54,414 bases of DNA from contig JAJYJC010000003.1 of assembly GCA_021796415.1 (NCBI GenBank), forward strand, positions 1 to 54,414, given 5' to 3'. How positions within the stretch are numbered: the first letter of the stretch is position 1; every line of letters begins with the position of its first letter. Source of the stretch: a bacterium. GTDB lineage: Bacteria; Patescibacteriota; CPR2; UBA1875; JAJYID01. The notes beneath the pieces are model-generated. The model saw only the letters and a list, made by a program, of their open reading frames with translations. It did not search any database and had not been told where the DNA came from. Below, in pieces: positions 2,980-54,332 of the stretch. The translations under genes and the position numbers were made by a program.

Positions 2980-3260
2980 GTCATTCTGGCCTGCCTGCCG
3001 GCAAGGCGGGCTTGGCCAGAATCTATATTAAGGTTTTCTGGGATGAGGCGGCTATATCCACCTTTGTTTTATGCTCAATCCCACACCCGGTGTGGGATTG
3101 AGCATCCGGAATCTATACCAGAAAATCTGAGTTCTAAAGTCAATTTCGAAATGGCAAAGGGCAAGGGATTCCGGGCAAGCCAGGATGACACGTTTAGCAA
3201 GTTTGGAATTGAATGTTGAAGTTTGATTGGAAATTGTAAATTAGAAATTGAGAATTGAAT
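2980..3260. repeat. Composite repeat cluster (GTCAT/ATGAC REP-like + 20-bp module + CCCACACC palindrome + heptamer arm)
   Basis: GTCATTCTGG..CCAGAATC (2980-3023), ATGCTCAATCCCACACC-C-GGTGTGGGATTGAGCAT (3071-3105), GATTCCGGGCAAGCCAGGATGAC (3167-3189), TTAGAAATTGAGAATTG. Confidence 0.8.
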
Positions 3261-3334
3261 CGCGGCCAAAGTAATTAAAGTAGCTAAACGGCATAAAACA
3301 AGCTATAATCAAAGAGCATTCTAAAAAGAAAACC

Positions 3335-4210
3335 ATGGATTTGACAAACATATTGGAATTAAAAAAATTGATGCGGACATATGGTGCCTGGCCCAATAAA
3401 GATTTGGGGCAGCATTTTTTGACCGACAAAAATGTCCTGGAAAAAATAGTCGAAACAGCCGAAGTGGATAAAAGGGACGTGGTGGTTGAGGTCGGGCCGG
3501 GGCTGGGAATTCTTACAAAGGAACTGTCGAAAAACGCAAAAAAGGTTTATGCCATTGAAATAGATCCTAAAATTGCCGAAATTCTCTCGACTAACTGTAT
3601 CAGCTGCAGGAATCTGGAAATTATAAGAGATGACGTACGGAAGTTTAATCCTCAAGGCATCGGCAGATACAAAGTTGTGGCAAATCTGCCATATTACATA
3701 ACCTCGCATGTCATTAGAAAGTTTCTGGAGGCAAAAAACAAGCCGCAAACTTTGACTGTTTTGATACAGCGGGAAGTAGCCGAGAGAATCTGCGCCAAGC
3801 CCGGCAGGATGAGTGTGCTGGCGGTTGCGGTTCAGTTCTACGGGGTGCCGGAAATCGCAGACCTAGTGTCTCCAATGGCTTTTTTCCCTTCGCCAAAGGT
3901 CTACTCTGCAATTTTGAAAATACGGGTATTTAAGGAGCCGCTATTTGAGGATGTTGACAGAAACATATTCTTCAGGCTTGTGAAGGCGGGCTTTAGCGAA
4001 AAAAGGAAGATGATCTCAAATTCAATTTCCGGCAGCCTGGGCATTGAAAAGAAACCCGTTGAAAAGTTGTTGGAAAGAGCAGGGGTTGATCCAACCTTGC
4101 GGCCGGAGAGATTGACCCTTGACGACTGGCATAGAATATATTTAGTATTTACAAAATATTTAAATTTGGAAACGGTTTATGGAAAGAGCGAAGATAAAAG
4201 TGACTGGTGA
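3335..4210 (+). CDS. rsmA: 16S rRNA m6,2A dimethyltransferase RsmA/KsgA
   Basis: LGQHFL, VEVGPGLG, VANLPYYIT, FFPSPKVYSA, RPERL motifs. Confidence 0.97.
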   Translation: MDLTNILELKKLMRTYGAWPNKDLGQHFLTDKNVLEKIVETAEVDKRDVVVEVGPGLGILTKELSKNAKKVYAIEIDPKIAEILSTNCISCRNLEIIRDDVRKFNPQGIGRYKVVANLPYYITSHVIRKFLEAKNKPQTLTVLIQREVAERICAKPGRMSVLAVAVQFYGVPEIADLVSPMAFFPSPKVYSAILKIRVFKEPLFEDVDRNIFFRLVKAGFSEKRKMISNSISGSLGIEKKPVEKLLERAGVDPTLRPERLTLDDWHRIYLVFTKYLNLETVYGKSEDKSDW

Positions 4211-4448
4211 TGTCCAGGGAGTATACTATCGGTTCAGCGCCAAGATGAAGGCAGAAGAGTTGGGCCTGACGGGTTTTGCTGAAAATGAATCCGACGATAG
4301 CGTATTGGTGGTCGTGGAAGGCGAAGCAGAGAAAATAAAGGCCTTTTTAAGATGGCTTGAGGTCGGTCCGCCGATGGCCGAGGTGGAAAACCTGGAAATT
4401 ACAAAAGAAAAGTATTCCGGCGAATATAAAGAATTCGAGGTCAGATAA
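4179..4448 (+). CDS. acyP: Acylphosphatase
   Basis: VTGDVQGVYYR..LGLTGFAEN..GPPMAEV. Confidence 0.93.
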   Translation: MERAKIKVTGDVQGVYYRFSAKMKAEELGLTGFAENESDDSVLVVVEGEAEKIKAFLRWLEVGPPMAEVENLEITKEKYSGEYKEFEVR

Positions 4449-5278
4449 TGCTCTATATCGTGTCAACGCCGATTGGCAACCTGGAAGACATTACCTTGAG
4501 AGCAATTGAAATTTTGAAGAGTGCCGATGTCATTGCCTGCGAAGATACCCGCCATACAAAGATATTGCTTGATAAATATGGGATTGGCGAGAAGCATTGT
4601 AAGGATATTAACGTCGTTTGTCATTCCGACTGCCGCCACGCTAGTGGAAAGCGGAGGAATCCCTTAACAATGAGGGCAGAAAATGATTGTAATTATAATA
4701 AGGAAAAGGGATTCCTCGACTCGTCTCTCCGAGAAGTCGCTCGGAATGACAGAGAGGGGAACCCTATCAAACTTATCAGCTATCATCAGCATTCAGGGTT
4801 GGTAAAAACCGAAAAAATTATCAGCATGTTGAAAGAAGGTAAAAATGTGGCTCTTGTGACGGATGCAGGAACGCCAGGCATCTCTGATCCGGGCAGTAAA
4901 CTGATCGCTGAAGCGATTACAAGTGACATTGAGGTCACAGCAGTTCCGGGTCCAGCCGCATTTGTATCTGCATTATCGGTTTCGGGCTTTGACACTTCTG
5001 AGTTTGTATATGCAGGATTTCTTCCCCACAAAAAGGGAAGGCAGACAAAGCTTAAAGAAATTGCCGCCGAAAAAAGGACAATCGTTTTATATGAATCAGT
5101 GCACCGGATAAAAAAATTACTCGGAGAATTAGCGGAGATTATACCAGATAGGGAGGTTTGTGTTTGCCGGGAGTTGACCAAAAAATTTGAAGAAATTTAC
5201 CGTGGGACAGCAAGTGAAATATTAGATAAAATCATCGAAAAGGGCGAATTTGTGGTAGTTATAAAGGAGACGAGATGA
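4448..5278 (+). CDS. rsmI: 16S rRNA C1402 2'-O-methyltransferase RsmI with a ~55-aa repeat-derived in-frame insert
   Basis: LYIVSTPIGNLEDIT, CEDTRHT, DAGTPGISDPG, VCRELTKKFEE; paired REP-like elements at 4620-4750. Confidence 0.96.
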   Translation: MLYIVSTPIGNLEDITLRAIEILKSADVIACEDTRHTKILLDKYGIGEKHCKDINVVCHSDCRHASGKRRNPLTMRAENDCNYNKEKGFLDSSLREVARNDREGNPIKLISYHQHSGLVKTEKIISMLKEGKNVALVTDAGTPGISDPGSKLIAEAITSDIEVTAVPGPAAFVSALSVSGFDTSEFVYAGFLPHKKGRQTKLKEIAAEKRTIVLYESVHRIKKLLGELAEIIPDREVCVCRELTKKFEEIYRGTASEILDKIIEKGEFVVVIKETR

Positions 5279-5889
5279 TAAAAACAATAATTTTTGACAA
5301 TAATGGAGTCTTGACAACTAGTTGTGAAGAGGGTGCTTTGAAGGGTTTAATTGATTATCTCGGGGTTAGCGAAGAGCAGTTTTTACCTGTTTGGAATCGC
5401 GAGGCTGAGGCTGTTGATGAGGGTAAAATCAAAACTGAGAAATTTCTGCAAAATGTAGTTAATGATTTAAAACTATCAAAAGATCTTGGCAAATGCCAAA
5501 GATACTATTGGGACAGTTACGAGCCCAAGCCGGAGGTAAGGGAGTTTGCAAAGAATCTTAAGAAGAAGTTTGAGATAGCGTTTTTGACCAACTTTGGAGA
5601 TCATTTCTGGGTGTTTAACAAAAAATGGAAACTTGATCAAATATTCGATCGGGATAAAATGTTTGTTTCGGCAGATTTGAAAATGGCAAAGCCGCACTCG
5701 GATATTTACTTTGCAGTTCTCAAAAAACTAGGCAGAAAACCCGAGGAGGTCGTTTTTATTGATGACAAGAAAGAAAATGTAGATACAGCTGAGGAGATTG
5801 GCATGCATGGGGTTCAATTTAAATCCCTTGAACAGGTAGAAAAGGATCTTGAAAATATTTTGGAGCACCAACCATCCATGTTATCTTGA
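5275..5889 (+). CDS. HAD-superfamily phosphatase
   Basis: IIFDNNGVL motif I, KPHSDIY motif III, FIDDKKENV motif IV. Confidence 0.88.
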   Translation: MIKTIIFDNNGVLTTSCEEGALKGLIDYLGVSEEQFLPVWNREAEAVDEGKIKTEKFLQNVVNDLKLSKDLGKCQRYYWDSYEPKPEVREFAKNLKKKFEIAFLTNFGDHFWVFNKKWKLDQIFDRDKMFVSADLKMAKPHSDIYFAVLKKLGRKPEEVVFIDDKKENVDTAEEIGMHGVQFKSLEQVEKDLENILEHQPSMLS

Positions 5890-5896
5890 TTTTTTT

Positions 5897-5978
5897 GTCA
5901 TTCCCGCGCAGACGGGAATCCAGACATTAATATAGATTCCCGCCTGCGCGGGAATGACAAATGATGGGTAGGAATGAC
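5897..5978. repeat. REP-like doublet (dRS3/RPE-like, CGTC family)
   Basis: GTCATTCCCGCGCAGACGGGAATCCAG ... AGATTCCCGCCTGCGCGGGAATGAC ... GGAATGAC. Confidence 0.85.
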
Positions 5979-6009
5979 AATTCGTGCAAAATCGTGCTAA
6001 AATACAGTT

Positions 6010-11954: not shown

Positions 11955-12185
11955 TGGAATTTTCAATTTCTAATTTTCTCTTCGAGCCTGAGCGGCCTCA
12001 GAGCCGAAGGCAATCAATACCCAAGTCTCAAATCATAATGTTATGGTTTCACTACACTAATATAGTTTAGTATAGCGCTGTGCAAGGGTCAGACCCTTGT
12101 AAATTAAGAGTATTTCACAAAGTAAGCCATTTTGAGGAACGAAGAATCTATCTAGATCCTTCGTCGTACCTCCTCAGGATGACGA
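11955..12185. repeat. Composite repeat cluster
   Basis: Heptamer arm interrupted by TTCGAGCCTGAGCGGCCTCAGAGCCGAA; CAAGGGTC-A-GACCCTTG (12083-12099); GCCATTTTGAGG..CCTCAGGATGAC (12125-12183). Confidence 0.7.
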
Positions 12186-14598: not shown

Positions 14599-14996
14599 AG
14601 ATTGTAATTCAGGGAATCGAATATAGGGTTATTGCAGAAGGAGCCTATGCCACTAAGTCCGAACCGGATAAACCGTATAAAAAATATAAATTGAATGACA
14701 ACAAAGCTTTAGTTATTTCAGATGAAGAGGATTTTGCGTTTTTCGGAGAAGATTTTGGGGAGTTAGATCTGGAACCGGGAGAGAAAAACATTAATTATAA
14801 AGGAACAGAATTCAAGCTTGCCACAGAAGATTATCAGATTTTAGAAAAAGCTGTGTTCGGAGAGCCGGAAGGGAACTTGAAATTCTGGGATTATGAGAAC
14901 GGGGAGCAAGTTATAAGTCTTGGGGTAAAAGAAAATGGCGAGAGGAGTGATGTGGCGGGAAAAGTCATTGATAAAAAAAGTATTAAATTTATATAG
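14595..14996 (+). CDS. Hypothetical protein (DUF4178-like)
   Basis: ATGA overlap; beta-rich acidic/aromatic composition; family call tentative. Confidence 0.6.
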   Translation: MKIVIQGIEYRVIAEGAYATKSEPDKPYKKYKLNDNKALVISDEEDFAFFGEDFGELDLEPGEKNINYKGTEFKLATEDYQILEKAVFGEPEGNLKFWDYENGEQVISLGVKENGERSDVAGKVIDKKSIKFI

Positions 14997-15220
14997 ATTC
15001 CCGTCTTCGCGGGAATGACGGGGAAGGGTCAGAATGACGAATTAGGTTTGAAAATTGACAAATTGGTAATTGAATGAAAATTAGAAATTGAGAATTGAAA
15101 ATTATTGGTTAAGGGATGATTCCGGTCAAGTCAGAATGACAAATTTCAGACATTAAAAAATTGGGAATTGTTTAGAAATTGGATATTAGCCTGCCTGCCG
15201 GCAGGCAGGATTTAGGAATT
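14995..15220. repeat. Composite repeat cluster
   Basis: AGATTCCCGTCTTCGCGGGAATGAC, CAGAATGAC, heptamer arm, GATTCCGGTCAAGTCAGAATGAC, CCTGCCTGCCGGCAGGCAGG. Confidence 0.8.
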
Positions 15221-17934: not shown

Positions 17935-19062
17935 ATGGCTAAAGCTAACACTAAAAGTAGACTTAATCAAAGAGTACTTGTCGCTATGTCGGGAGGGGTA
18001 GATTCTTCCGTCGCTGCATATTTATTAAAAGAAGAAGGATACGGGGTTATCGGCGCCACGATGAAGCTTTTTTGCTATGGGGAAAAGCAAGAAAGGCAAA
18101 AGGCTTGCTGTTCGCTTGAAACAATTAACGATGCAAAGCAAGTTTGCGAACAGCTGGGCATCCCACATTATGTTTTTGATATGGAAGAAGAGTTTGAACG
18201 GGAAGTTATTGAGGATTTTGTAAAGGAATATGAGAAGGGCAGAACTCCCAATCCTTGTATCCGCTGCAACCAGCTGATAAAGTTCGATTATTTATTAAAT
18301 AAAGCCAAAGAATTAAATTGTGACTTTTTGGCAACCGGGCACTATGCCAGGATAGCGAACAGCAACCAAAGTTGTCATTATGAGCGATCCGGCAGTTGCC
18401 GGAAGCCGAAGAATCCCTTAAAATTATTAAAAGGAGCTGACGAGGCAAAGGACCAGACATATTTTCTTTATCGGCTAAACCAAAACCAGCTTTCAAGGAT
18501 AAAGTTTCCGTTGGGTGAACTGACCAAGAAAGAGGTGAGGAAAATTGCCAAGGAAGGGGGCCTCAAGACAGCCGAGAAAGCCGAAAGCCAGGAAATTTGC
18601 TTTGTCGACACAAGCGTCTCAGAATTTATTTCAGATAAAATCAAGGTAAAAAGAGGCGATATTTTGGATACCTCAGACAGAAAGATGGGCGAGCACGAAG
18701 GCGTCCCATTCTACACTATAGGCCAGAGAAAAGGCCTTGGAGGAGGCTTTAAAGAACCAATGTATGTCGTCGATATCGATGCGGCGAAAAATGCGGTCAT
18801 CGTCGGGCAGGAACAGGATTTATATAAAAAAGAAGTGTTTTTTGACGATGCGAACTGGATATCAGGCGATACGCCGGCCGGAACAGGTTTGTCTGCTGTG
18901 ATCCGTTATAACATGAAAGAGGAGAGCGTTTCAGAATTGAAACAGATTCAAGGCGCGTATAAAACAATCTTTGAGAAAAAGGTGAGAGCGGTTACTCCCG
19001 GACAATCGATTGTGTTCTACTCGGGCGATGAATGCCTCGGTGGGGGAATCATTAAAAATTAA
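17935..19062 (+). CDS. mnmA: tRNA 2-thiouridylase MnmA with short repeat-derived insert
   Basis: VAMSGGVDSS, PNPCIRCN, ATGHYA, KDQTYFL, ESQEICF, TIGQRKGL, TPGQS. Confidence 0.97.
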   Translation: MAKANTKSRLNQRVLVAMSGGVDSSVAAYLLKEEGYGVIGATMKLFCYGEKQERQKACCSLETINDAKQVCEQLGIPHYVFDMEEEFEREVIEDFVKEYEKGRTPNPCIRCNQLIKFDYLLNKAKELNCDFLATGHYARIANSNQSCHYERSGSCRKPKNPLKLLKGADEAKDQTYFLYRLNQNQLSRIKFPLGELTKKEVRKIAKEGGLKTAEKAESQEICFVDTSVSEFISDKIKVKRGDILDTSDRKMGEHEGVPFYTIGQRKGLGGGFKEPMYVVDIDAAKNAVIVGQEQDLYKKEVFFDDANWISGDTPAGTGLSAVIRYNMKEESVSELKQIQGAYKTIFEKKVRAVTPGQSIVFYSGDECLGGGIIKN

Positions 19063-21966: not shown

Positions 21967-22010
21967 AGATTCTGGACAAGCCTGCCTGCCGGCAGGCAGG
22001 CCAGAATGAC
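21967..22010. repeat. REP-like element with nested 20-bp palindrome
   Basis: GATTCTGGACAAG[CCTGCCTGCCGGCAGGCAGG]CCAGAATGAC. Confidence 0.88.
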
Positions 22011-28570: not shown

Positions 28571-29890
28571 ATGTTTTGTGATGAAGCGACAATTCAAGTA
28601 ACTGCCGGCAAGGGAGGCGATGGCCTGTCTAGCTTTTTGCATGAAAAATTCAGGGCAAAGGGCGGATCTGATGGAGGCAATGGAGGAGATGGAGGCAGTG
28701 TTTATTTAATTTCAAGCAACAGCACAAACACTCTCTATGACTACAAAACAAAACGGCGCATGAAGGCGGAAAACGGCGAGCAGGGGAAAAGATATAAAAA
28801 ACACGGCGCACAGGGAAAAGATTTAGAGGTCAGAGTGCCCATTGGGACTCAGGTATTTGACGAGGCAAGCGGTCACAAATTGTTTGATTTTACTAAAAAC
28901 GGCCAGAAGTTTTTAGCTGCGAAAGGAGGAGAGGGCGGTTTTGGCAATGCTCACTTCGTCTCATCAGTCAGGCAGGCGCCGCAGGTTGCAGAACTCGGTG
29001 AAAAAGGAGAAGAAAAAACTCTCAAGTTAGAACTAAAACTTATTGCCGATGTCGGCTTGATTGGGCTGCCCAATGTCGGCAAATCCACCTTTCTTTCAGT
29101 TGTATCAGCGGCCAGGCCCAAAATCGCCGATTATCCCTTTACCACAATTATCCTAAATCTTGGCGTTGTGGACGGCTCAAAACACGGCATTAAAGGCTTC
29201 AGCTTTGTTATTGCCGACATTCCCGGATTAATAGAAGGCGCCTCAAAGGGAAAAGGGCTTGGGGATGAATTTCTGCGCCATGTTGAGAGAAATCGCGTCC
29301 TGGTGCATTTTATCGACTCAAACTCAGAGGATTTTGCCAAAGACTTTAAAGATATCAACAGAGAGCTCCTAGAATTTAGCAAAGATCTAGTTTTGAAGCC
29401 CCAGATCGTGGTGATCACAAAGACTGACGCGGCAAATGATTTCCAGGAAAAGTTACAGAGATTACAAAATGAGCTAAAAAAGGAAAAGAAAGTAAAAATC
29501 ATAAACAAAAAGCCTCTTTTGATCTCCGCAGCCACTCACGCGGGTGTTAAGGAATTGGTCTCTTTGGTTGCCCAGACTTTACAAAAACAACTACTTTCCT
29601 CTTTGTCATCCCCGCGCAGGCGGGGAACTACAACAAAAGCAGGGGAAAAGGTCTTCACGGCGCGCGATATTGTCGGCTCAACTTTTCACATTGAGGAAAT
29701 AGGCGGCAAATTCATTATTACAGGAGCAAAAATAGAACGATTTGCCCGCAAAACTGATTTTTCAAATTACCATTCAAAAGCCAGAATGCTGGACATCATG
29801 AGCAAAATGGGTATAATGAAGGAGCTCGAGAAAAGAGGGGCCGGTGTCGGCAGTGAAATTGAAGTTAGCGGCAAGAAGTTTAAATTATAA
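28571..29890 (+). CDS. obgE: GTPase ObgE/CgtA with C-terminal domain
   Basis: MFCDEATI, GGDGGSV, GLPNVGKST, DIPGLIEGA, TKTD; REP-like insert at 29605-29626. Confidence 0.96.
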   Translation: MFCDEATIQVTAGKGGDGLSSFLHEKFRAKGGSDGGNGGDGGSVYLISSNSTNTLYDYKTKRRMKAENGEQGKRYKKHGAQGKDLEVRVPIGTQVFDEASGHKLFDFTKNGQKFLAAKGGEGGFGNAHFVSSVRQAPQVAELGEKGEEKTLKLELKLIADVGLIGLPNVGKSTFLSVVSAARPKIADYPFTTIILNLGVVDGSKHGIKGFSFVIADIPGLIEGASKGKGLGDEFLRHVERNRVLVHFIDSNSEDFAKDFKDINRELLEFSKDLVLKPQIVVITKTDAANDFQEKLQRLQNELKKEKKVKIINKKPLLISAATHAGVKELVSLVAQTLQKQLLSSLSSPRRRGTTTKAGEKVFTARDIVGSTFHIEEIGGKFIITGAKIERFARKTDFSNYHSKARMLDIMSKMGIMKELEKRGAGVGSEIEVSGKKFKL

Positions 29891-30066
29891 AAAATCCTAA
29901 ATCCTAAATCCTAATTTCTAAACAAATTCGAAATTATAAATCCAAAACATTTTGAATTTGAAGTATTTGAATTTATAATTTGTTTAGTATTTCGATATTA
30001 GAATTTAGTATTTAAAAGTTAAGGGATTCCTCGGCTTGTCGCTACCATGAAGCCGCTCGGAATGAC
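29891..30066. repeat. Heptamer-period hairpin element plus REP-like half element
   Basis: CTAAATCCTAATTTCTAAACAAATT...ATTTGTTTAGTATTTCG...TTAGAATTTAG; AAGGGATTCCTCGG..GCTCGGAATGAC (30021-30066). Confidence 0.8.
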
Positions 30067-32758: not shown

Positions 32759-33752
32759 GTGGGCAAACCGACAATTGAAAAACAATAAAGTTTCTGAGCC
32801 GGAAAAATCGGCAGAGTTTTTGCTGCGGCAAGTTTTAAGCGCAGGAGCTCAGTCCCACACCGGGTGTGGGATTGAATGGGATAAAGCCAAGTTAATCGCA
32901 AATCCCGATTACGCATTAACTGGGAAGCAGGAGGAGCAATTCCGCCAGTTCATCGAGAGACGCAAGAAGCACGAACCGGTTTGGTATATAACGGGGCGCA
33001 TAGAATTTTATGGACTGGATTTGGAGGTCAGCCAGGATGTTTTGATTCCGCGGCCGGAAACAGAGTTTCTGGTTGAAGAGGTGCTCTCCGTCATTCCCGC
33101 GGAGGCGGGAATCCAGAGAAAGGATTGTATAGATTCCCGCCTCTGCGGGAATGACAGTAAAAAGGGCGGGAATGACAATGCTGCTAGGATTTTGGAGCTG
33201 GGAACAGGGAGTGGAGCGATATCTCTTGCGCTTGCGAGCCAATTCAAGGGTAAAAAAGAAGGATTCTGGTCAAGCCAGAATGACGTAGAAATTTTTGCTT
33301 CGGATATTTCCAGTGATGCACTTAAGATTGCCAAAAGGAATGCAAAGAGGTTAGGACTGGATTCCCGATCGGGGTCGGGAATGACAAAAATAGTCGGCAT
33401 TGAGTTTCGGCAGGGAGACTTGCTGGCGCCATGGCAAGGTGAAATGTTTGACATCATTGTTGCCAATTTGCCATACATACCGCATGAAGATCTGGATTCG
33501 TTAGCACTCGATATCCATCACTGGGAACCAAGGGTGGCTTTGGACGGAGGCAAGGAAGGTCTGGAGATTTACGAAAGGCTGATAAAACAGGCAAAAGATT
33601 ATTTAAATGAAAATTATCAAATGTTTTTTGAAATAGGCATTGGCCAAGGGAAGGGAATTCGCAAATTAGCCGAAAAATACTTACCGGAGGCAAGCGTTGA
33701 AATAAAAAAAGATTATGGCGACATTGACCGCATCGCTATAATCAAAGGCTAG
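32736..33752 (+). CDS. prmC: Release factor glutamine methyltransferase PrmC with four repeat-derived inserts
   Basis: EPVWYITG, VLIPRPETE, ELGTGSGAI, DIS..AL, ANLPYIP, ALDGGKEGL, EIG, KDYGDIDR. Confidence 0.95.
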   Translation: MRVKEALKWANRQLKNNKVSEPEKSAEFLLRQVLSAGAQSHTGCGIEWDKAKLIANPDYALTGKQEEQFRQFIERRKKHEPVWYITGRIEFYGLDLEVSQDVLIPRPETEFLVEEVLSVIPAEAGIQRKDCIDSRLCGNDSKKGGNDNAARILELGTGSGAISLALASQFKGKKEGFWSSQNDVEIFASDISSDALKIAKRNAKRLGLDSRSGSGMTKIVGIEFRQGDLLAPWQGEMFDIIVANLPYIPHEDLDSLALDIHHWEPRVALDGGKEGLEIYERLIKQAKDYLNENYQMFFEIGIGQGKGIRKLAEKYLPEASVEIKKDYGDIDRIAIIKG

Positions 33753-33844: not shown

Positions 33845-33909
33845 GTCATTCTGAACTTGATTCAGAATCCAGACTGATTATATAGATTCCGGATCAAGCC
33901 CGGAATGAC
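33845..33909. repeat. REP-like doublet
   Basis: GTCATTCTGAACTTGATTCAGAATCCAG ... AGATTCCGGATCAAGCCCGGAATGAC. Confidence 0.85.
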
Positions 33910-34700: not shown

Positions 34701-34813
34701 GTCATTCCGCCTGCCTGCCGGCAGGCAGGGACTATTCATTTAAAATATAATCAGTTGATCCGGAATCCAGCATCTTTGAACAAAAAGAAAGATTCTGGAC
34801 AAGCCAGAATGAC
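34701..34813. repeat. REP-like doublet with nested 20-bp module
   Basis: GTCATTCCG[CCTGCCTGCCGGCAGGCAGG]...CCGGAATCCAG...GATTCTGGACAAGCCAGAATGAC. Confidence 0.82.
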
Positions 34814-36662: not shown

Positions 36663-36725
36663 GTCATCCTGAGGCCTTGACGCCGAAGGATCTCATGTTA
36701 GATTCTTTATTTCATTCAGAATGAC
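36663..36725. repeat. REP-like doublet overlapping the first ATG of leuS
   Basis: GTCATCCTGAGG..GAAGGATCTC..AGATTCTT..CAGAATGAC. Confidence 0.8.
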
Positions 36726-39638: not shown

Positions 39639-39707
39639 GTCATCCTGAGGCACGAAGGATCTCATGAGATTCTTCGCTCGTTTTGAGAAAAAGTCGCTCA
39701 GAATGAC
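39639..39707. repeat. REP-like doublet
   Basis: GTCATCCTGAGGCACGAAGGATCTC-ATGAGATTCTTCG..GCTCAGAATGAC. Confidence 0.85.
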
Positions 39708-41247: not shown

Positions 41248-41420
41248 GTCATTCTGGCCTGCCTGCCGGCAGGCAGGCCCGACCAGAATCTTGTAATATC
41301 AAATTAAAAATATCCCTGCTTCGCCGGCAGGCAGGTAATTTCTAACGAAATTCCAAATACCAAATCTTGAAACTTAACGAATTAGGAATTTGATTAGACA
41401 TTAGAAATTGGGACTTAGAA
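41248..41420. repeat. Composite repeat cluster
   Basis: GTCATTCTGG[CCTGCCTGCCGGCAGGCAGG]CCCGACCAGAATC; CCTGCTTCGCCGGCAGGCAGG; heptamer arms. Confidence 0.8.
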
Positions 41421-43002: not shown

Positions 43003-45699
43003 ATGTATCTCAAAAACATTCATGTTGCAGGATTTAAGTCTTTCGGAGGGAAGAATGTTTTGGATTTCCCCGAAGCCGGAAGCGCCAAGCAGAAAAGTTT
43101 TGCCGCGGTTGTCGGACCGAACGGAAGCGGAAAGAGTAATATTGCCGACGCTATCCGCTGGGTTTTGGGCGAACAATCTTCGAAGCTTCTCAGAGTGAAA
43201 AAAGGCGAGGACGTCATATTCTTCGGCAGTGCCAAGAAGGGCAGGGGATCATTCTCGGAAATTTCTTTAACCTTAGATAATGCTTGTTCCTTCCGTCATC
43301 CTGAGGTATCGAAGGATCTCAAAAGTAATTTCCAATTTCCAATTTCCCTGCCTCGCCGGCAGGCAGGCAATTTCCAATCAAATTCAAATGTTCAAAATTC
43401 AAAAGGATTGGATTCCCGCCTTCGCGGGAATGACATGGAAATAAATGGAAATGACAATGGTGTTGACCTTTCCGAGATTGAAATTACCCGCCGCCTGTAT
43501 CGAAACGGCGATAATGATTACTTTGTTAACAGGAAAAAGGTCAGGCTGTTCGATGTGCAGGAACTGCTTGCAAAATGCGGGGTGGGAAGATCTACTTATA
43601 CAGTTATCGGACAGGGGATGGTTGATTCTTTGCTTTTTTATGGTCCGGCTGAGCGGAAAGTTCTCTTCGAGGAAGCATCGGGCGTGAAGCAGTATGAGAT
43701 CAAGCGCGCTGAATCTTTACGCAAACTAGACTCAACAGACAAAAACATTATCCGCATTAAAGATCTTTTGTATGAATTGGAGCCGAGATTGAAGTCGGCT
43801 GAGCGAAACTTCAAAAAATACCAAAAAAAGCAGGATATAGAGAAGGAGCTGGATGAGCTGAGCCGCAAATATTATTCCGGCGTATTTTCTCAAATTCAAT
43901 CCAAGAAAGAAAAGCTGCAGAAGGAACTCACAGAATTTAAGAAGAAAGAATCCGGCCTGCAGTCAGAAATTACTGCACTGGAAGCAAAAATCGCCAAAGG
44001 TTTAAAAGCCGAGGGTTCTGACAAGAAGGAGAAAGAGCTTCGAGGGAATATTGACTCGCTTGCTGCAAGAAGCGATGATCTTGCGCGGCAAATTTACAGA
44101 TTAGAGGCTGAAAATCAAGCGTCGAAGTCTGTATTCTCAAGGGAGAAGGAAGGGCTTTTCGGTGAAAGAGATAGGATTTCTCGGGACATCCGAGAGTTAG
44201 AAGAAAAAATAGCCAGGCTAAATACAGAGGGCAGTGAAAATCAGGCGAGGCTTGATAGCGCCAAGAGAGAGCTTGCCGAGCTGGACAAAAGAATTGTTTT
44301 TTCAAATGACACTCTGGCAAAAATTCAACGGGAAAGCTTGTCTTTGACCAAGGATGACATTCGAAAAAAGCTAGAAGAGATTTACAAAAATTACTCGCTG
44401 GTGGTGGCAAAAATGAATTCCGTCACTGATCTGAAAAGTTTCGGCAAACTCAAAAAAGAGGCGGAAAGTGTAGCAAATGCCTTAGATGCTTTGGCAGAAG
44501 ACATCAAAAAAAGCCAGAGCACCGACACCAGCCTGCTTGAAAGCAAGCAAAAAGAGATAAAGGGGCTGGTTCAAAATAAGGAAAAAATACTCAGTATCAT
44601 TCAGGATTTAAGGGTCAGATCCATTTCACGGGAAGACATCTTGAAGAATTCAAAAAGCCGGGCCGAGAGCTTAAAGAAGCAATTAGAAGATACAGTTGCC
44701 AAGATAGGCAGTTTAAAAGAGCCGGAAGCCGGAGGTTTGAAAAAGATTACCGAGTTAAACCGGGAAAAAACAGGCATAGACGAGGAAATTTCTGAGTTAA
44801 AACTTAAGCTGGAGGAGTTGGCGTCAAAAAGCGCTTCCGGTGACTATACTAAGATTTTGGAAGATGAGAAGTCAAGGAGAAGAGAGCTCGCGGGTGTTCA
44901 AGAAGAAATTGGCGCTTTCAATATTGATCTGGCAAAGGTAGAGACGCGCGAGGAAGATTTGCGCGATGAAATCCATGAGTTTCTGGGCGAGACATTTTAC
45001 AAGGGTCTGACCCTTGCAGAGGACAGTCCTCTGCAAGGCGGGAACTTTGACCATCTGATGCCAAAAATCCAGCGCCTTCGAAAGGACATGTATGCGCTCG
45101 GCGAGATCGACCAGTTTGTCGGGGAAGAGTTTGAAGAGCTGGAGGGGAGGGTTGGTGAATTGCGTGAACAATATGAGGATTTGGAAAAGGCAAAAAAAGA
45201 CATATTGAAAGTTATAGGAGAGTTAGACGCGCGCATCAAGACACAGTTCAAAACCACATTTGTAAAAATTTCAGAGGAGTTTACCAAATATTTCAAAATT
45301 CTTTTTGGCGGGGGCAATGCGGCATTGAATCTAGAAACAGATGAGGAGGGAAACTTTGGCGTGGAGATTACAGCGACGCCGCCGGGCAAGAAAAACCAGT
45401 CTCTAAATTCGTTATCAGGCGGAGAAAGGGCTCTGACCTCGATCGCGCTTCTTTTTGCTATTTTAAGCGTAAATCCAAGTCCATTCTGTGTACTGGATGA
45501 GGTAGACGCTTCACTTGACGAAACAAATACTGAAAGATTTTTGGAAATTTTAAAAACTCTCTCACATAAAACTCAATTTATTGTCGTTACACACAACCGC
45601 GAAACCATGAAGAAAGCCGACGTTATCTACGGCGTCTCCATGGACGACAATCATGTGTCGCAAGTGTACTCGCTGAAACTGACAGAAGTTGGAACATGA
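43003..45699 (+). CDS. smc: SMC-family ATPase (short, no evident hinge) with repeat-derived insert
   Basis: GPNGSGKSN Walker A, IGQG Q-loop, LSGGE, LDEVDASLD, VTH; composite repeat at 43295-43455. Confidence 0.9.
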   Translation: MYLKNIHVAGFKSFGGKNVLDFPEAGSAKQKSFAAVVGPNGSGKSNIADAIRWVLGEQSSKLLRVKKGEDVIFFGSAKKGRGSFSEISLTLDNACSFRHPEVSKDLKSNFQFPISLPRRQAGNFQSNSNVQNSKGLDSRLRGNDMEINGNDNGVDLSEIEITRRLYRNGDNDYFVNRKKVRLFDVQELLAKCGVGRSTYTVIGQGMVDSLLFYGPAERKVLFEEASGVKQYEIKRAESLRKLDSTDKNIIRIKDLLYELEPRLKSAERNFKKYQKKQDIEKELDELSRKYYSGVFSQIQSKKEKLQKELTEFKKKESGLQSEITALEAKIAKGLKAEGSDKKEKELRGNIDSLAARSDDLARQIYRLEAENQASKSVFSREKEGLFGERDRISRDIRELEEKIARLNTEGSENQARLDSAKRELAELDKRIVFSNDTLAKIQRESLSLTKDDIRKKLEEIYKNYSLVVAKMNSVTDLKSFGKLKKEAESVANALDALAEDIKKSQSTDTSLLESKQKEIKGLVQNKEKILSIIQDLRVRSISREDILKNSKSRAESLKKQLEDTVAKIGSLKEPEAGGLKKITELNREKTGIDEEISELKLKLEELASKSASGDYTKILEDEKSRRRELAGVQEEIGAFNIDLAKVETREEDLRDEIHEFLGETFYKGLTLAEDSPLQGGNFDHLMPKIQRLRKDMYALGEIDQFVGEEFEELEGRVGELREQYEDLEKAKKDILKVIGELDARIKTQFKTTFVKISEEFTKYFKILFGGGNAALNLETDEEGNFGVEITATPPGKKNQSLNSLSGGERALTSIALLFAILSVNPSPFCVLDEVDASLDETNTERFLEILKTLSHKTQFIVVTHNRETMKKADVIYGVSMDDNHVSQVYSLKLTEVGT

Positions 45700-49072: not shown

Positions 49073-49176
49073 GTCATCCTGAGTGAAGCGTAGCGGAATC
49101 GAAGGATCTCATAAACAAGATTCCGAGAGAAAGGGATTCCTCGGCTCGCCGCTATCGTGAAGCCGCTCGGAATGAC
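49073..49176. repeat. REP-like doublet
   Basis: GTCATCCTGAGTGAAGCGTAGCGGAATCGAAGGATCTC ... AAGGGATTCCTCGG..GCTCGGAATGAC. Confidence 0.85.
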
Positions 49177-49893: not shown

Positions 49894-49922
49894 TTTACAT
49901 ATTTTCAAATTGTATCTATCAT
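49894..49922 (+). promoter_or_regulatory. Sigma70 promoter
   Basis: TTTACA-17 nt-TATCAT. Confidence 0.55.
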
Positions 49923-49963
49923 TTAATCATTAATAGTAAGTGACTAAAGGAGTGTATTTTTAA

Positions 49964-50146
49964 ATGGCAAAATTTGTAGTAGACGAAAACTTGTGCAGCG
50001 GGTGCGGAACCTGCGTAAATGTATGTCCGGATTGTTTTGAGCTCGGAGATGATTATAAGTCTCATGTCAAACAAGACAATTGCGACAATTGTGACGCCGA
50101 TGAAGTAGTGCTCGAGTGCCCGATGGGGGCCATAAGTTATGAATGA
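49964..50146 (+). CDS. Single-cluster ferredoxin
   Basis: CSGCGTCVNVCP ... ECPMGAI. Confidence 0.9.
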   Translation: MAKFVVDENLCSGCGTCVNVCPDCFELGDDYKSHVKQDNCDNCDADEVVLECPMGAISYE

Positions 50147-50948
50147 TTTTGATTCCATAAATCCGATGAATGCATATCCTTCGGGGCAAGGAGGTGGCTC
50201 GGGAAGCTCAGGTGTGCCGCCGAGCGGACCGGTTGATCCCACGCCTCCGCCGATTAATCCTATTAGCCCTCAAGGGCCGATGAGCGAAAAAACAAACTTT
50301 TCCAGGATATATCAAATCATAATTGGAGCGGTGGCTTTGTTTCTGATTATATCCCTGATTTTTGCAGCTATTTATTACCAGAAGGCAAACAAGACGCAGG
50401 CATATATAAATAGCGTTGCTTCGCAGGCGGCCGACCAAAAAGCCAAAGATGACAAGGTATCATGTGACGCGCAAATCAAAGACATCAAGGAAAATCCTTG
50501 GACGGAGTACACTGCCAGGCAGGAGTTTGGGGCCTTTAAATTTATAGTGCCGAGAAATTGGTCGCAGTATGAGTACTACGATATAAATGCCAATGATCCT
50601 TACAGTCTCTTTTTCAGCCCGGATACGGTTCGTTATGACTCAAACACCAGAGATAACCATTCCGCTCTTCAAGTTGTGGTCAGCAAAAGGCTTTATTCTG
50701 ATGAAATAAGTGATCTCGAACAAAGTATAAAGATGAATATGGATACTAGTTCAAGCGAGGAAAAGGTTACCATTTCTAATTTTACCGGAACAAAGTTTGT
50801 TTACACTAACAAGGACTTAAACCGCAAGGTTGGCGTCATAGTTCTGCCGTACCGCGATAGGGCGCTTATGATTAAAACCGACGATTATGACAAGTGGGGC
50901 GACAAATATTTCACCAAGTTTTACCAGTCGTTTGCATTAACACCGTAA
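50139..50948 (+). CDS. Membrane-anchored hypothetical protein (PsbP-like C-terminus)
   Basis: Pro/Gly-rich N-terminus, TM, FKFIVPRNWS, ends FYQSFALTP. Confidence 0.75.
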   Translation: MNDFDSINPMNAYPSGQGGGSGSSGVPPSGPVDPTPPPINPISPQGPMSEKTNFSRIYQIIIGAVALFLIISLIFAAIYYQKANKTQAYINSVASQAADQKAKDDKVSCDAQIKDIKENPWTEYTARQEFGAFKFIVPRNWSQYEYYDINANDPYSLFFSPDTVRYDSNTRDNHSALQVVVSKRLYSDEISDLEQSIKMNMDTSSSEEKVTISNFTGTKFVYTNKDLNRKVGVIVLPYRDRALMIKTDDYDKWGDKYFTKFYQSFALTP

Positions 50949-51070
50949 ATGGGTTAATCGGTACTTGGGTCGATAGGGAATTAGGTTTTTCAGGAGTATC
51001 CTTGTTGGGCGGGTCTTTTGATGTCCTTATACTAGAATTGATCGCATACTCGTGATAGAATAGTTGCCTT

Positions 51071-53239
51071 ATGGATAAATTTGTCTTAAAACATGCGCAT
51101 AAGCCGACCGGCGACCAGCCTCAGGCGATAGAGAAGCTTGCGTCTGGCATAGAAAAGGGTCTCACGCGAGAGATTCTGCTTGGCGTGACCGGATCCGGCA
51201 AGACTTTCACGGCGGCAAATGTGATTCAAGAGATTAATAAGCCGACGCTGGTTATTTCCCATAACAAAACTTTGGCGGCACAACTGTATAGCGAATTCAA
51301 GGAATTCTTCCCCGACAACGCTGTCCGCTACTTTGTTTCATACTACGATTATTACCAGCCGGAGGCCTACATCCCGAGAACCGACACCTACATTGAGAAA
51401 GACGCAAAAATCAATGAAGAGATCGATCGCTTGAGAAATGCGGCCACGGCAGCCCTGCTGTCACGAAAAGACGTGTTAATAGTCGCCAGTGTCTCCTGCA
51501 TCTATGGCCTTGGCTCTCCGGAAGACTATTTCCAGATGAGAGTGGACTTTGAGGCCGGCAGGGCAAAGAACCAGGAAAAGGCCATGCGCCAGCTGCTCGA
51601 GGTACAGTACGAGCGAAATGACAAGACATTTGAACGGGGGAATTTCCGGGTGCGGGGCGATGTACTCGATATATTTCCGATTTACGAGGAAATAGGCTAT
51701 CGCATTCAATTTGATGGGAATGTTGTGGAAGCTATCCGAAGCATCAATCCGGTGACAGGCGAGCTCGGCAAAAAAATAGATAAATTGTCTGTCTTTCCGG
51801 CGCGCCACTTTGTCACGCCGAAGGAAAGGCTGCACTCTGCCATTCCGGAAATCAGGACAGAGCTGGCAGTAAGGCTTAAAGAGCTAAAAACGCAAGGGAA
51901 ATTGCTTGAAGCGCAAAGGCTCGAGCAAAGGACGAACTTCGACCTGGAAATGATTGAAGAAACGGGCTTTACCTCCGGCATTGAGAACTATTCCCGTTAT
52001 CTCTCCGGCAGGAAGGCGGGTGAGGCGCCGTCAACTTTGCTTGATTTCTTCCCGGACGATTATCTTCTTCTCATAGACGAATCGCACATGACTATTCCAC
52101 AGATTCGGGGGATGTATAACGGCGACCGGTCCCGAAAAGAAACCTTAGTTGAGCATGGTTTCAGGCTTCCCTCAGCGCTCGACAACCGTCCGCTTCACTT
52201 TTCGGAATTCAAGAAATTAATGGGCCAAACCGTATTTATCTCTGCCACCCCGGGACCCTATGAGTTTAAGGTTGCAAGTGAGGGCGAGATAGAGTCAGCT
52301 GATGAATATTATGAGGCGGTAAGAAATAATGATCAATTTCCAGTTTCCAATTTCCAATCAATTTCCAATGAGCAAAATTCAAACAAAAAAGGTCATTCTG
52401 GGGACGATAGGACTCCAGAATCGGATTTGGACAAGGATTCTGGCCAAGCCAGAATGACGGGAAGGGGTTTCCCTTGGATTGCCGAGCAGATCATTCGCCC
52501 GACCGGGTTGCTTGAGCCTCTTGTCGATGTCAGGCCGACCAAAAACCAGATAGACGACCTTATCCACGAGATTCGCCAAACGGTCAAGAAAAAGCAGCGG
52601 GTTTTGGTGACGACCCTGACCAAAAGAATGGCAGAAGACCTAAGCGAATATCTGAAAGAGTTGGGTATCAAGGTTACATATTTGCACTCCGAAATTAAAA
52701 CACTTGAGCGCCCGGAAATTTTGAGGGACCTTCGAAAGGGTGTTTATGATGTGGTAGTTGGAATCAATCTGCTCCGAGAAGGCTTGGACCTGCCGGAAGT
52801 GTCGCTGGTTGGCATTTTGGACGCAGATAAGGAAGGATTTTTGCGAAGCAACCAGTCGCTAATTCAGACGATGGGCCGGGCCGCCAGGCATCAAGAAGGC
52901 CGGGTCATAATGTACGCCGATAATATCACCGGGTCGATGAAGCAGGCGATAGGCGAGACACAGCGCAGGCGCAAGATTCAGGAAGAATACAACAAGAAAC
53001 ATGGCATCACGCCGAAAACCATTCAGAAAGCTATCCGAGATGACCTGGCACAAAAGGTGCCGGAAGAGAAGAAGATAGAAATCTCAGATATTCCAAAGGA
53101 TGAGGTAGAGAGAATTGTGCGGGACATGAGAAAACAAATGGAAATAGCTTCGAAGAATTTAGAATTTGAAACAGCCGCCAAACTGCGCGACCAGATTCGT
53201 GACATAAGGGCAAAACTGGAATCGAAAAAGATTAAATAG
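51071..53239 (+). CDS. uvrB: Excinuclease ABC subunit B with ~60-aa repeat-derived insert
   Basis: [64 protein letters not shown]. Confidence 0.98.
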
Positions 53240-53332
53240 GTTATTGGGTCGTTGGGTTTATGGGTGAATTGGGCAAAAATAGTTTCATCGATCGGACTAC
53301 CTATTTAAAATCCCCCCCCCAAAGAAGCCGAC

Positions 53333-53358
53333 GGCCGGCCTCCCGAAGGAGGCCGGCC
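53333..53358. terminator. GC hairpin between convergent genes
   Basis: GGCCGGCCTCC-CGAA-GGAGGCCGGCC (C-TTCG-G tetraloop on the minus strand). Confidence 0.72.
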
Positions 53359-53377
53359 TACAAAAAAGGTGTTGGAA

Positions 53378-53689
53378 TCAGCCGTTAGGCTGGTGCTGCT
53401 GCCGGTAGCAGCATATCCGCTTGCCCTCGGCAGCGATTATAGCACTGCTGCCCTGACCGTACATCTTCTCCACTGCTCTGGAGAATTCCTCTCCGCAAAG
53501 CAGGTTAAAGTATGGCGCCTCGCAGTCAGGGTTGCTGGTCCCAGGGTCGTTCTCGATGACCAGTGTGCTGCTGTCGGGCAACTCGTAATCGCCCTCTTTG
53601 CCCTGGTTGTCGCGAATAACGCTCATCATTGCCTCAACGACAGTATTGGCATCGACGATGAGCCTATCCATGATCTCCGGTGGTTGCAC
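53378..53689 (-). CDS. Hypothetical protein, paralog 1
   Basis: GTG after AAGGAG; VVEAMMSVIR..GDYELPDSS. Confidence 0.7.
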   Translation of the reverse strand: MQPPEIMDRLIVDANTVVEAMMSVIRDNQGKEGDYELPDSSTLVIENDPGTSNPDCEAPYFNLLCGEEFSRAVEKMYGQGSSAIIAAEGKRICCYRQQHQPNG

Positions 53690-53710
53690 TGCTATCTCCT
53701 TTCCGGTTGA

Positions 53711-54001
53711 CTATTTCGGGAAGAACCGCGTACAGATAAGCCACCTCTCGCCGTTCCAGATGACGACAGGAATGCCCCTTTCCAGTGTGGCGGCTATATC
53801 GCCCTGATTCGTTCTGTTGATGATGTCGATCATATAGTATGACGACAGGTTTGCAGTAACTCTCAGGTCGTGCGGGTTGATAGAGATATGGCTGCCGTCG
53901 GGCAACTCTATATCCCCATCCAGATCACCATGTCGGATGGCGTCCAGCATGGCCTCGACCGCTTTTTCGAGAGACTCGACCTTAATTGCCTCCTTTTGCA
54001 T
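53711..54001 (-). CDS. Hypothetical protein, paralog 2
   Basis: ATG after GGGAG; AVEAMLDAIR..GDIELPDGS. Confidence 0.7.
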   Translation of the reverse strand: MQKEAIKVESLEKAVEAMLDAIRHGDLDGDIELPDGSHISINPHDLRVTANLSSYYMIDIINRTNQGDIAATLERGIPVVIWNGERWLICTRFFPK

Positions 54002-54050
54002 GTCCATCTCCCTTCCGGTTGTGGTTGGCGTGAACAAAGTTTGGACACAC

Positions 54051-54079
54051 ATTATAACCTTTAAGTCAATTTAAATCAA
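54051..54079 (-). promoter_or_regulatory. Sigma70 promoter for the paralog pair
   Basis: TTGATT-17 nt-TATAAT on the minus strand. Confidence 0.65.
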
Positions 54080-54103
54080 CATTTAGAGGCGAGCCAAAAA
54101 CTC

Positions 54104-54132
54104 TTGCCACATCTCGCAAAAATCTGTATAAT
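54104..54132 (+). promoter_or_regulatory. Sigma70 promoter of uvrA
   Basis: TTGCCA-17 nt-TATAAT with extended TG. Confidence 0.72.
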
Positions 54133-54164
54133 GGAGAGGTTTCAGCGGGATTCTTAGGAATAAT

Positions 54165-54332
54165 TTTTAATTTTCAGTTAATAATTTTCATTGAATTTTC
54201 AATGGCTTAATTTTTAAACATTGGAAATTGTGACTTGATTGAAAATTGGAAATTGAGAATTGAAAATTTTAAAGTTTGGATTCTGGACAAGCCAGAATGA
54301 CCCACGCACTATTAGCAAAGTGCGGGGCAGGC
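54165..54332. repeat. Heptamer inverted-arm element plus REP-like half element
   Basis: AATTTTCATTGAATTTTCAATG..TTGATTGAAAATTGGAAATTGAGAATTG; GATTCTGGACAAGCCAGAATGAC (54279-54301). Confidence 0.78.

Follow-up and report, generated by a model that had tools for sequence, protein, structure and literature searches.

Hairpin repeats in a Patescibacteriota contig as probable Ssn-related elements without their nuclease gene

We investigated a 54,414 bp stretch of bacterial DNA (G+C 43.6%; contig JAJYJC010000003.1 of assembly GCA_021796415.1, lineage Patescibacteriota), here called the window, which carries a dense family of short inverted repeats with the outer ends GTCAT and ATGAC. The repeats are of the kind described as CGTC-tagged repetitive extragenic palindromes (REPs) and, in Neisseria, as NTS or dRS3, and we consider it probable that they are Ssn-related hairpin repeats and miniature derivatives of ssn elements. 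A doublet of the window has the architecture of two Ssn-related motifs (SRMs) around an ssn gene, SRM-ssn-SRM, minus the ~300-bp gene for the ~100-aa GIY-YIG nuclease Ssn. The repeat kind is known and its partner recently identified; new are the host lineage, the high local density and the unusually high share of copies inside genes.

The CGTC-tagged REPs were divided into the families CGTC-1 to CGTC-4 by Di Nocera, De Gregorio and Rocco (2013, BMC Genomics 14:522; PMC3733652). Their definition comprises a (C/T)GTC head, a stem of 8-9 bp starting with AT, a loop of 4-5 nt and a short tail, with most copies arranged as dimers, and the group was equated with dRS3 of Neisseria and with the Rickettsia palindromic elements (RPEs) RPE-4 (CGTC-4) and RPE-6 (CGTC-1) (PMC3733652). 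An earlier reading of the window, made from the letters alone, had assigned its repeats to this group, rightly, as their features fit the published families. Chenal et al. (2025, Nat Commun 16:2388; PMC11893778) found NTS and SRM motifs associated across phyla with ssnA, whose product is a ~100-aa single-domain GIY-YIG protein (cd10448). The oriented 28-nt NTS contains dRS3, and SRM is the broader designation; motifs were located near 71% of the ssnA homologues and on both sides of 42%. SsnA binds the hairpin and cuts beside it, in single-stranded DNA (ssDNA) only, binding depending most on the C after the palindrome and cleavage most on the three bases that precede it, and both NTS and Ssn affect transformation (PMC11893778).

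The curated census of the window comprised 38 units, 34 full ones and 4 partial heads, together 1,128 bp or 2.1% of the sequence, which is roughly one unit per 1.4 kb. Twelve doublets, each of two facing units with the GTC heads pointing outward, contained 24 of the 34 full units, in agreement with the dimer organisation of CGTC repeats, and the other ten were singletons. The features described by the sequence-only reading were present at every one of its 23 listed loci. The heptamer GAATGAC occurred 32 times on both strands, compared to 7.1 ± 2.7 expected from dinucleotide shuffles (maximum 17), and GTCAT followed by a hairpin with at least 7 of 8 pairs occurred 31 times, compared to 5.7 ± 2.8 in shuffles (maximum 13). 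A covariance model of the simple unit, built partly from the window's own units, gave 15 matches with E < 0.01 and 8 weaker ones, every one of the latter in a doublet context.

Each unit is an oriented ssDNA hairpin: GTC is followed by a stem whose first bases are AT, then by the loop, the second stem arm and a C. GTC was invariant in all 33 full units with an intact head and was preceded mostly by C or T; one degenerate unit has GCC instead. We distinguished four classes, S1 (GTCATTCCCGCG-N4-CGGGAATC; NTS-like, 8 bp stem, 4 nt loop), S2 (GTCATTCTGGCTTGNCCAGAATC; 7 bp stem, 5 nt loop, some copies with a long loop containing the palindrome GCCTGCCTGCCGGCAGGCAGGC), S3 (GTCATTCCGAGCG...CGAGGAATCCCTT; ~45 nt) and S4 (GTCATCCTGAGG...CGAAGGATCTC), which have in common the invariant frame GTC-AT...AT-C. 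About 12 units fall outside the published loop length of 4-5 nt, namely the S3 units, those with a nested GC palindrome and the units at 34701 and 39668. The variable inner palindrome noticed earlier proved real: in the alignments A3 and A4 the GTC before the stem and the C after it stayed fixed while the stems covaried (TTCTGG/CCAGAA, TTCCCG/CGGGAA, TTCCGG/CCGGAA, TCCTGG/CCAGGA and others), with 4 of 7 stem pairs altered on both sides and 18 compensatory cells, compared to 2.8 in shuffles. Two recurrent subfamilies could also be confirmed, AAGGGATTCCTCG..GCTCGGAATGAC at 4705, 30021 and 49131, and GATTCTGGACAAGCCAGAATGAC at 34791 and 54279.

When folded as ssDNA the S1 and S2 units and doublets were strongly structured (down to -29 kcal/mol, z about -10), the S1 doublets forming long hairpins of -27 to -29 kcal/mol. 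Taken singly, S3 and S4 units had weak folds (z -0.6 to -2.4), and the case for hairpins is therefore based chiefly on S1 and S2. Beyond S1 R units a partial head (GGGAATGAC again) was often found at a distance of 7-11 nt (5978, 15038, 33176, 43455), and partial heads outside R units were also detected in the related loci L204 and L203; they may be a footprint of how copies arise.

The positions that do not vary in the window, GTC before the stem and C after it, are those reported as critical for Ssn cleavage and binding, respectively. Five S1 units differ by at most 2 mismatches from the Neisseria NTS 28-mer CGTCATTCCCGCGMAVGCGGGAATCYRG, and 33089-33116 lies within one. The published SRM pattern matched 4 units, where 0.13 were expected; units of S2, S3 and S4 have the SRM architecture, yet they lie outside that published degenerate pattern.

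The partner gene was found in other genomes that share the units. The exact 23-mer of the units at 34791 and 54279, GATTCTGG(N)CAAGCCAGAATGAC, occurred on more than 119 contigs from many phyla, including many Patescibacteria classes, Nitrospirota, Gammaproteobacteria, Ignavibacteria and others. In 829 kb of loci chosen by this 23-mer alone, a motif scan revealed six open reading frames (ORFs) of ~100 aa, four of which were checked and all four matched Pfam PF01541 (E 9e-14 to 4e-11); a GIY-YIG profile search of the same loci gave 7 ORFs in total. Relatives of the GIY-YIG ORF were then sought in GTDB representative genomes. Among the best 40 of 80 loci, GTCAT hairpins lay within 400 bp of the ssn-like gene in 35 and on both sides in 29. 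The published link between such units and ssn was reproduced in these loci. The geometry was fixed: an F unit preceded the ATG by 40-70 nt and an R unit lay over the stop codon (..ILDKPE* = ATTCTGGACAAGCCAGAATGA). The ssn-like gene thus lies inside a doublet, in which a long two-tier loop is typical of the left unit and the simple 23-mer forms the right one. In the window, the uvrB doublet (52392-52458) consists of the same left and right pair, with 13 nt between the units where the gene would be, and this pairing also occurs at the ssn-like loci L208, L210 and L214. Other ssn-like genes were flanked by S1-type and S4-type units.

Copies inside genes and turnover among relatives

In the window 14 of the 38 units (37%) lie in frame within six conserved genes with housekeeping functions, rsmI, mnmA, obg, prmC, smc and uvrB, and the reading frame of the host gene stays open at every one. 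The label "REP-like", which implies an extragenic position, is incomplete in view of these 37%, which the sequence-only reading had not noticed. Compared to solved structures, UvrB has an insert of 65 residues, placed between positions 402 and 405 of the Bacillus protein, and RsmI one of 59, placed between positions 49 and 51 of the E. coli protein. Obg has 7 extra codons compared to L203 and L204, and SMC 54 extra residues compared to the locus L288, with flanks of about 95% protein identity. In PrmC, GTCAT units occupy three sites and a different palindrome family a fourth. Five of the six frames of S1 and S2 units are free of stop codons, the sixth being closed by the TGA of ..GAATGAC, and it is because of these open frames that insertions of the common units into coding sequence can survive; selection would then spare only copies in permissive linkers. 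In an AlphaFold model of PrmC the inserts at sites B and C and the peptide of the site-A palindrome were low-confidence coil, which is weak support only, as the model is mediocre (mean pLDDT 69) and two conserved regions are low-confidence as well.

Relatives contain intragenic copies of their own. Four R units lie in uvrC of L288 (20727-22160 of JAJYLR010000001.1), without counterpart in the window, and three units in leuS of L204 (16388-16603). These copies echo the excess of CGTC repeats in DNA-repair and tRNA-synthetase genes, which is already published.

Turnover of the units between relatives is real. The sequence-only reading had named fixation at orthologous sites, with no empty alleles, and confinement to the window as observations that would speak against an active family; comparison with relatives revealed empty sites at orthologous positions, and enrichment extends beyond the window, with units in L204 and L288 and depth spikes at the units in the metagenome. 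Among PrmC orthologues (60-88% identity) the four hot spots were empty, filled, or occupied by another subfamily. At site A the window has a different palindrome where L203 has two GTCAT units and a partial head; at site B the window and L203 have a doublet, L204 the left unit only and L202 an unrelated short linker; site C was filled in the window only. Within the 20 kb that are syntenic with L204 (protein identity about 70%), the majority of unit sites were not shared. Present only in the window were the units in obg, upstream of glmS, at prmC sites C and D and in the nusB-rnc spacer; present only in L204 were two intergenic sites, the leuS units mentioned above and one site past rnc, and the leuS-yceD spacer contained doublets of different subfamilies in the two. 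At the uvrB site the closest relative, L286 (90% identity), was empty, L288 had the doublet of the window, P0124 and P0126 had doublets of S3 type, and P0125 had an S1 unit. As a separate observation, the segment with tRNA-Ala(ggc) and its adjacent doublet (33758-33909) is inverted relative to L204 10934-11190, with the left and right units of the doublet swapped accordingly.

Some inserts are more conserved than their host genes. In uvrB, the window and L288 share 92% identity over the 132-nt insert and 72% over the remainder, and no other part of the gene is as well conserved as the insert. The units at prmC site B and upstream of glmS are 100% identical in relatives with diverged flanks. 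This points to constraint at the DNA level, homogenisation from other copies, or lateral replacement.

Explanations for the spread of the units

Doublets are most simply read as miniature non-autonomous derivatives of the SRM-ssn-SRM element, and singletons would be half-elements. An Ssn encoded elsewhere in the genome would recognise units that become single-stranded during replication, repair or DNA uptake and would cut next to the GTC head; cutting, followed by host repair or recombination, could then lead to spread, loss and homogenisation of the units. We infer mobilisation by Ssn from these relations.

The earlier statement that the window holds no cognate transposase was upheld: Pfam matches revealed no transposase among the genes of the window and of syntenic relatives, and no ssn gene is present in the window either. 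Its description of an active non-autonomous family was correct in two parts, the non-autonomy (no candidate for a mobilising gene in 63 kb) and the turnover (empty and refilled sites), and unsupported in naming RAYT, the REP-associated tyrosine transposase, as the mobilising enzyme. Many of the Ssn homologues in a large protein collection (about 8,000 profile matches) are located on contigs of ~1 kb. Short contigs of this kind would result where flanking repeats break assemblies, so that the metagenome-assembled genome (MAG) may lack an ssn gene that its organism has. The source metagenome contains ssn-like contigs, two of which have depths of 21.6 and 24.5, near the ~28x of the genome, a match that is suggestive only. 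The exact 31-mer of the left uvrB unit had no match in GTDB representative genomes, and the use of UvrB as a query for related loci gave distant phyla alone, the protein being too conserved.

Several points weigh against Ssn-derived repeats as the explanation. No ssn gene was detected in the window and the 8.8 kb downstream of it (63 kb) at E < 0.1 with a profile of 82 Ssn-like ORFs, nor in ~62 kb from five contigs of four relatives (L095, L147, L202-L204), and S3 units were not found beside any ssn gene in the sampled loci. Units were chosen for hairpin formation, which makes their percentage of paired bases partly circular. Filled and empty sites are unclean, with variable linkers and unrelated linker sequence in some of the empty ones, and part of the pattern could be due to deletion or recombination. 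Metagenome contigs aligned to the window yielded chimeric, repeat-mediated joints alone, with no usable evidence of empty alleles. By eye, none of the 12 doublets had a target-site duplication. To our knowledge GIY-YIG nucleases have not been linked to strand transfer or DNA joining, and we know of no demonstration that CGTC or NTS units transpose. What Chenal et al. demonstrated is cleavage and an effect on transformation, not mobility (PMC11893778).

A stronger form of the Ssn reading is possible, and we put it forward tentatively: the doublets could be miniature forms of an unrecognised class of mobile element whose sole gene is the ~100-aa GIY-YIG Ssn between hairpins with outward tags, and which spreads across phyla, recolonises permissive loops of essential proteins and is homogenised at the DNA level. 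The spread across phyla is read from the identical 23-mers in Patescibacteria, Nitrospirota, Gammaproteobacteria and Ignavibacteria. If true, this would be a type of transposon without a DDE, HUH, serine or tyrosine enzyme.

Alternatively, the units could have lost their mobility and be kept for host use, with the differences between relatives arising by deletion, recombination and gene conversion. We regard this as rather unlikely. It is a live alternative in two variants: as in Neisseria, the units could be Ssn recognition sites that act as a filter on which incoming or exposed ssDNA is recombined, or they could serve as intergenic RNA or DNA hairpins. The conservation of the uvrB insert above the rest of its gene and of the prmC site-B and glmS-upstream units despite diverged flanks would suit such a function, as would the stereotyped intergenic positions, with F units 7-50 nt past a stop codon and R units 7-36 nt ahead of a start codon, the lack of visible target-site duplications, and the effect of NTS and Ssn on transformation (PMC11893778). 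On the other hand, different subfamilies at the same site (UvrB, PrmC sites A and B, the leuS-yceD spacer) require new arrivals, copies in essential genes are hard to view as designed sites, and near-identical units occur across phyla. A role as intrinsic terminators was rejected, because R units on the coding strand precede A runs and not T runs.

The sequence-only reading had proposed REP doublets (REPINs) moved in trans by a RAYT (Y1/HUH) encoded elsewhere, which we now consider very unlikely. The doublet geometry is REPIN-like, the S1 doublets fold as stably as described above, and the genome beyond the window was not seen. At L264 (3001-4090, an Acidobacteriaceae MAG), the sole site with both gene types, an ssn-like gene with its R unit is directly followed by a RAYT-like Y1 ORF (E 6e-10 to E. 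coli RayT). However, RAYT-associated REPs are headed GTAG, where the units of the window are headed (C/T)GTC-AT, and no Y1 transposase or RAYT was present in the window. A search with E. coli RayT of 1.3 Mb of unit-bearing loci gave two weak Y1 matches, neither flanked by units, as against 7 Ssn-like genes in the unbiased 829-kb subset. CGTC REPs seem to have no transposase of their own: RAYT and IS200 genes do occur in many CGTC-bearing species but were never found flanked by the units (PMC3733652).

We give even less credence to classical MITEs (miniature transposable elements with inverted repeats), in which GTCAT...ATGAC would be the pair of terminal inverted repeats of a deleted DDE insertion sequence moved in trans. 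The inverted outer ends, the element size of 60-130 bp and the many copies fit such elements; the missing target-site duplications (0 of 12 doublets) and the window without transposase do not, the ten singletons and four partial heads are a misfit to a pair of terminal repeats, the two arms can differ in subfamily, and the gene found between such arms elsewhere encodes a GIY-YIG nuclease and not a DDE transposase. Least credible of all is an artefact of assembly or binning by which repeats of other community members were misjoined into the MAG: metagenome depth does rise to 400-2000x over the units from ~28x in the flanks and short-read contigs do break there, but an independent NCBI assembly agrees over 13.3 kb in all but 4 bases, which lie outside repeats, Logan contigs of run X1 cross units with 0 mismatches (29605; 30021; 39639-39707), the host frame is open at all intragenic copies, and some inserts are common to relatives from other samples (L203, L288).

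On the Ssn-derived reading, the hunt for the "missing transposase" should target a small GIY-YIG gene and not RAYT. The units remodel the essential proteins UvrB, SMC, Obg, PrmC, RsmI and MnmA at recurrent hot spots, and the doublet as an ssn element minus its gene, together with the over-conserved insert, provides testable handles on how CGTC and NTS repeats spread. In practice, assemblies of genomes of this type are broken up by the repeats, and ORF calls become inflated or displaced.

Positions of the units and neighbouring sequences

Positions of the 38 GTCAT units in the window. F, unit on the + strand; R, unit on the - strand; E, E-value of the covariance model.
Unit	Class	Position	Strand	Context
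F		2980..3023	+	S2 with GC palindrome in loop; left arm of wide doublet, upstream of rsmA
R	S2	3167..3189	-	right arm of doublet 2980-3189, 143-nt spacer; E 0.028
F	S3	4620..4665	+	~45 nt; in frame, rsmI
R	S3	4705..4750	-	in frame, rsmI; with 4620 part of 59-aa insert
F	S1 (NTS-like)	5897..5920	+	7 nt past stop of HAD gene; E 2e-6
R	S1	5935..5958	-	doublet 5897-5958 folds at -27.6 kcal/mol as ssDNA
partial head (GTCATTCCTACCC)		5966..5978	-	just beyond R unit 5935
F	S4	12126..12148	+	degenerate, head GCCAT; upstream of iscS
R	S4	12155..12183	-	partner of 12126; E 0.14
R, singleton	S1	14996..15019	-	abuts stop codon of DUF4178 gene
partial head		15026..15038	-	beyond R unit 14996
R, singleton	S2	15118..15140	-	upstream of iscU; E 0.017
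F, singleton	S3	18374..18418	+	in frame, mnmA; equals 14 aa extra vs solved MnmA structures
R, singleton	S2	21968..22010	-	nested GC palindrome; between alaS-like gene and CYTH gene
F, singleton	S1 variant	29605..29628	+	in frame, obg; not in L203/L204 orthologues; E 0.0065
R, singleton	S3	30021..30066	-	23 nt upstream of glmS; identical in L203, L201; absent L204
F	S1	33090..33113	+	in frame, prmC site B; one mismatch vs Neisseria NTS 28-mer
R	S1	33132..33155	-	in frame, prmC site B
partial head		33164..33176	-	prmC site B
R, singleton	S2	33262..33284	-	in frame, prmC site C, peptide GFWSSQND; absent L202, L203
R, singleton		33360..33385	-	in frame, prmC site D, peptide DSRSGSGMT; absent L204
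F	S2 variant	33845..33869	+	11 nt from tRNA-Ala(ggc)
R	S2 variant	33885..33909	-	best covariance match; doublet arms with differing, compensated stems
F		34701..34768	+	long loop of GC palindrome and AT-rich DNA
R	S2	34791..34813	-	exact 23-mer that overlaps ssn stop codon in other genomes
F	S4	36663..36691	+	upstream of leuS; E 0.14
R		36701..36725	-	ends 7 nt before likely leuS start; E 0.043
F	S4	39639..39663	+	50 nt past leuS stop; E 0.1
R		39668..39707	-	long loop; S3 doublet in same spacer of L204
F, singleton	S2	41248..41290	+	nested GC palindrome; 27 nt past nusB; absent L204
F	S4	43295..43320	+	in frame, smc; E 0.11
R	S1	43411..43434	-	in frame, smc; 54-aa insert absent from L288 orthologue
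partial head		43443..43455	-	inside smc
F	S4	49073..49110	+	upstream of trmD; E 0.19
R	S3	49131..49176	-	25 nt upstream of trmD; 92% identical to 30021 copy
F	"left-end"	52392..52422	+	loop GGGGAC..GTCC; in frame, uvrB; E 0.0013
R	"right-end"	52436..52458	-	in frame, uvrB; doublet equals both ssn-element ends without gene
R, singleton	S2	54279..54301	-	36 nt upstream of likely uvrA start

Nearly all genes of the window are on the + strand, and its content is housekeeping (rsmA, rsmI, metS, iscS/iscU, mnmA, an alaS-like gene, ftsA, ruvX, obg, glmS, prmC, leuS, nusB, rnc, smc, rpsP, trmD, uvrB and the start of uvrA). Rfam and ARAGORN detected two tRNA-Ala genes over the window and no other match. 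The closest named relative of its UvrB is from a "Patescibacteria group bacterium" (73% identity), and those of its PrmC are from "candidate division WS5 bacterium" (61-66% identity), and we accordingly regard the host as Patescibacteria-like and uncultivated. In leuS (36733-39588) a NUDIX-hydrolase domain is inserted mid-protein (..AIAVVRNPKDNKYLCLKW..REVLEETGY..), and the L204 orthologue has the Pfam order tRNA-synt_1, NUDIX, tRNA-synt_1.

An identical UvrB is encoded on the NCBI contig DAHWUJ010000002.1 (assembly GCA_027334665.1), which is the independent assembly mentioned above. It overlaps the window at 41071-54414, and its 4 mismatches all lie at 47929-47947, clustered within 19 bp close to where the S16 gene begins. 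The 8.8 kb that it adds downstream of the window contained no GTCAT units. The sequence of the window was present in four mine drainage metagenome runs, at ~28x in run X1.

Further repeat families were observed nearby. The GC palindrome GCCTGCCTGCCGGCAGGCAGGC has 7 copies (2990, 15190, 21981, 34710, 41258, 41323, 43355), four nested in loops of GTCAT units and three free, one free copy being translated in smc. A third palindrome family, CAATCCCACACC(C/G)GGTGTGGGATTG, is located at 3076-3100, 21763-21787 and 32850-32874; one copy is intergenic, and the in-frame ones lie in the alaS-like gene (..NPTPGVGLKG..) and at prmC site A. A fourth, AAGGGTCAGACCCTTG, occurs at 12084, 12937, 12999 and 45001; two copies bracket an in-frame insert of ~27 aa in iscS (RPLQNNGKSHDFEHENSLQGSDPCSQP), one is in smc and one intergenic. 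AT-rich modules were found in a forward form, AAATTGAGAATTGAAAATT (3202-3263, 15042-15103, 17843-17904, 40228-40289, 41362-41423, 54207-54268), and a reverse form, AATTTCCAATTTCCAA (25695-25753, 43324-43403, 52332-52383). They adjoin GTCAT units, lie upstream of many genes and are translated together with the units in uvrB and smc (SNFQFPIS); they may be promoter-like spacers or composite with the GTCAT units. A G/T-rich motif, AATGGGTTAATCGGTTTATTGGTAAATGGG (20065-20102, 50948-50977, 53235-53272), is located just upstream of the alaS-like gene and of uvrB and just past uvrB.

Comparison with known repeat systems

REPIN-RAYT systems, reportedly described by Nunvar and colleagues in 2010 and by Bertels and Rainey in 2011, resemble the repeats of the window in that inverted-hairpin doublets are the apparent unit, a single-copy gene between two hairpins forms the "master" element, and the copies persist for long and act as a sequence population. 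In contrast, the gene here encodes a GIY-YIG nuclease instead of a Y1/HUH transposase, the units are headed GTC(AT) instead of GTAG, and identical units occur across phyla, whereas most REPIN-RAYT systems are confined to a lineage and inherited vertically.

With the RPEs, which Ogata and colleagues are said to have described in 2000, the repeats have in common the in-frame palindromic copies in housekeeping genes, presumably translated as extra surface peptides, the reduced host genome and an insert in uvrB. Orthologues without the insert exist for Obg, PrmC, SMC and UvrB; the likeness concerns placement. RPE-1 is longer (~100-150 bp) and unrelated. Unlike in RPEs, relatives of the window carry different subfamilies at one and the same protein site.

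The CGTC-tagged REPs are matched in the (C/T)GTC head, the stem starting with AT and the 4-5 nt loops of the simple units, as well as in the CCA-like tail on many F units. Further likenesses are the mostly dimeric arrangement with heterodimers allowed, spacers of 10-100 bp, units near ORF ends and the lack of a transposase gene between units. Copies in frame within genes are a further common feature, particularly in DNA-repair genes (uvrB, uvrA and others); such copies are documented for CGTC repeats, many of them in repair genes including uvrB of R. conorii (PMC3733652). The window differs by at least 4 subfamilies that coexist in 54 kb, by the many units with long two-tier loops (a nested GC palindrome, or the ~45 nt of S3) and by the high intragenic share of its units.

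From the NTS and SRM system of Neisseria the window differs in having no ssn gene within it and in the intragenic share, which is 2% for NTS in N. meningitidis and 37% for the units here; Patescibacteria are not mentioned in the main text of Chenal et al. (PMC11893778). The likeness lies in the S1 units, 1-2 mismatches from NTS, in the oriented hairpin with conserved GTC and C, and in the unit-flanked ~100-aa single-domain GIY-YIG proteins encoded by genomes that share the window's units. The comparison places the Ssn-related family, probable as the origin of these repeats, in a Patescibacteria-like reduced genome.

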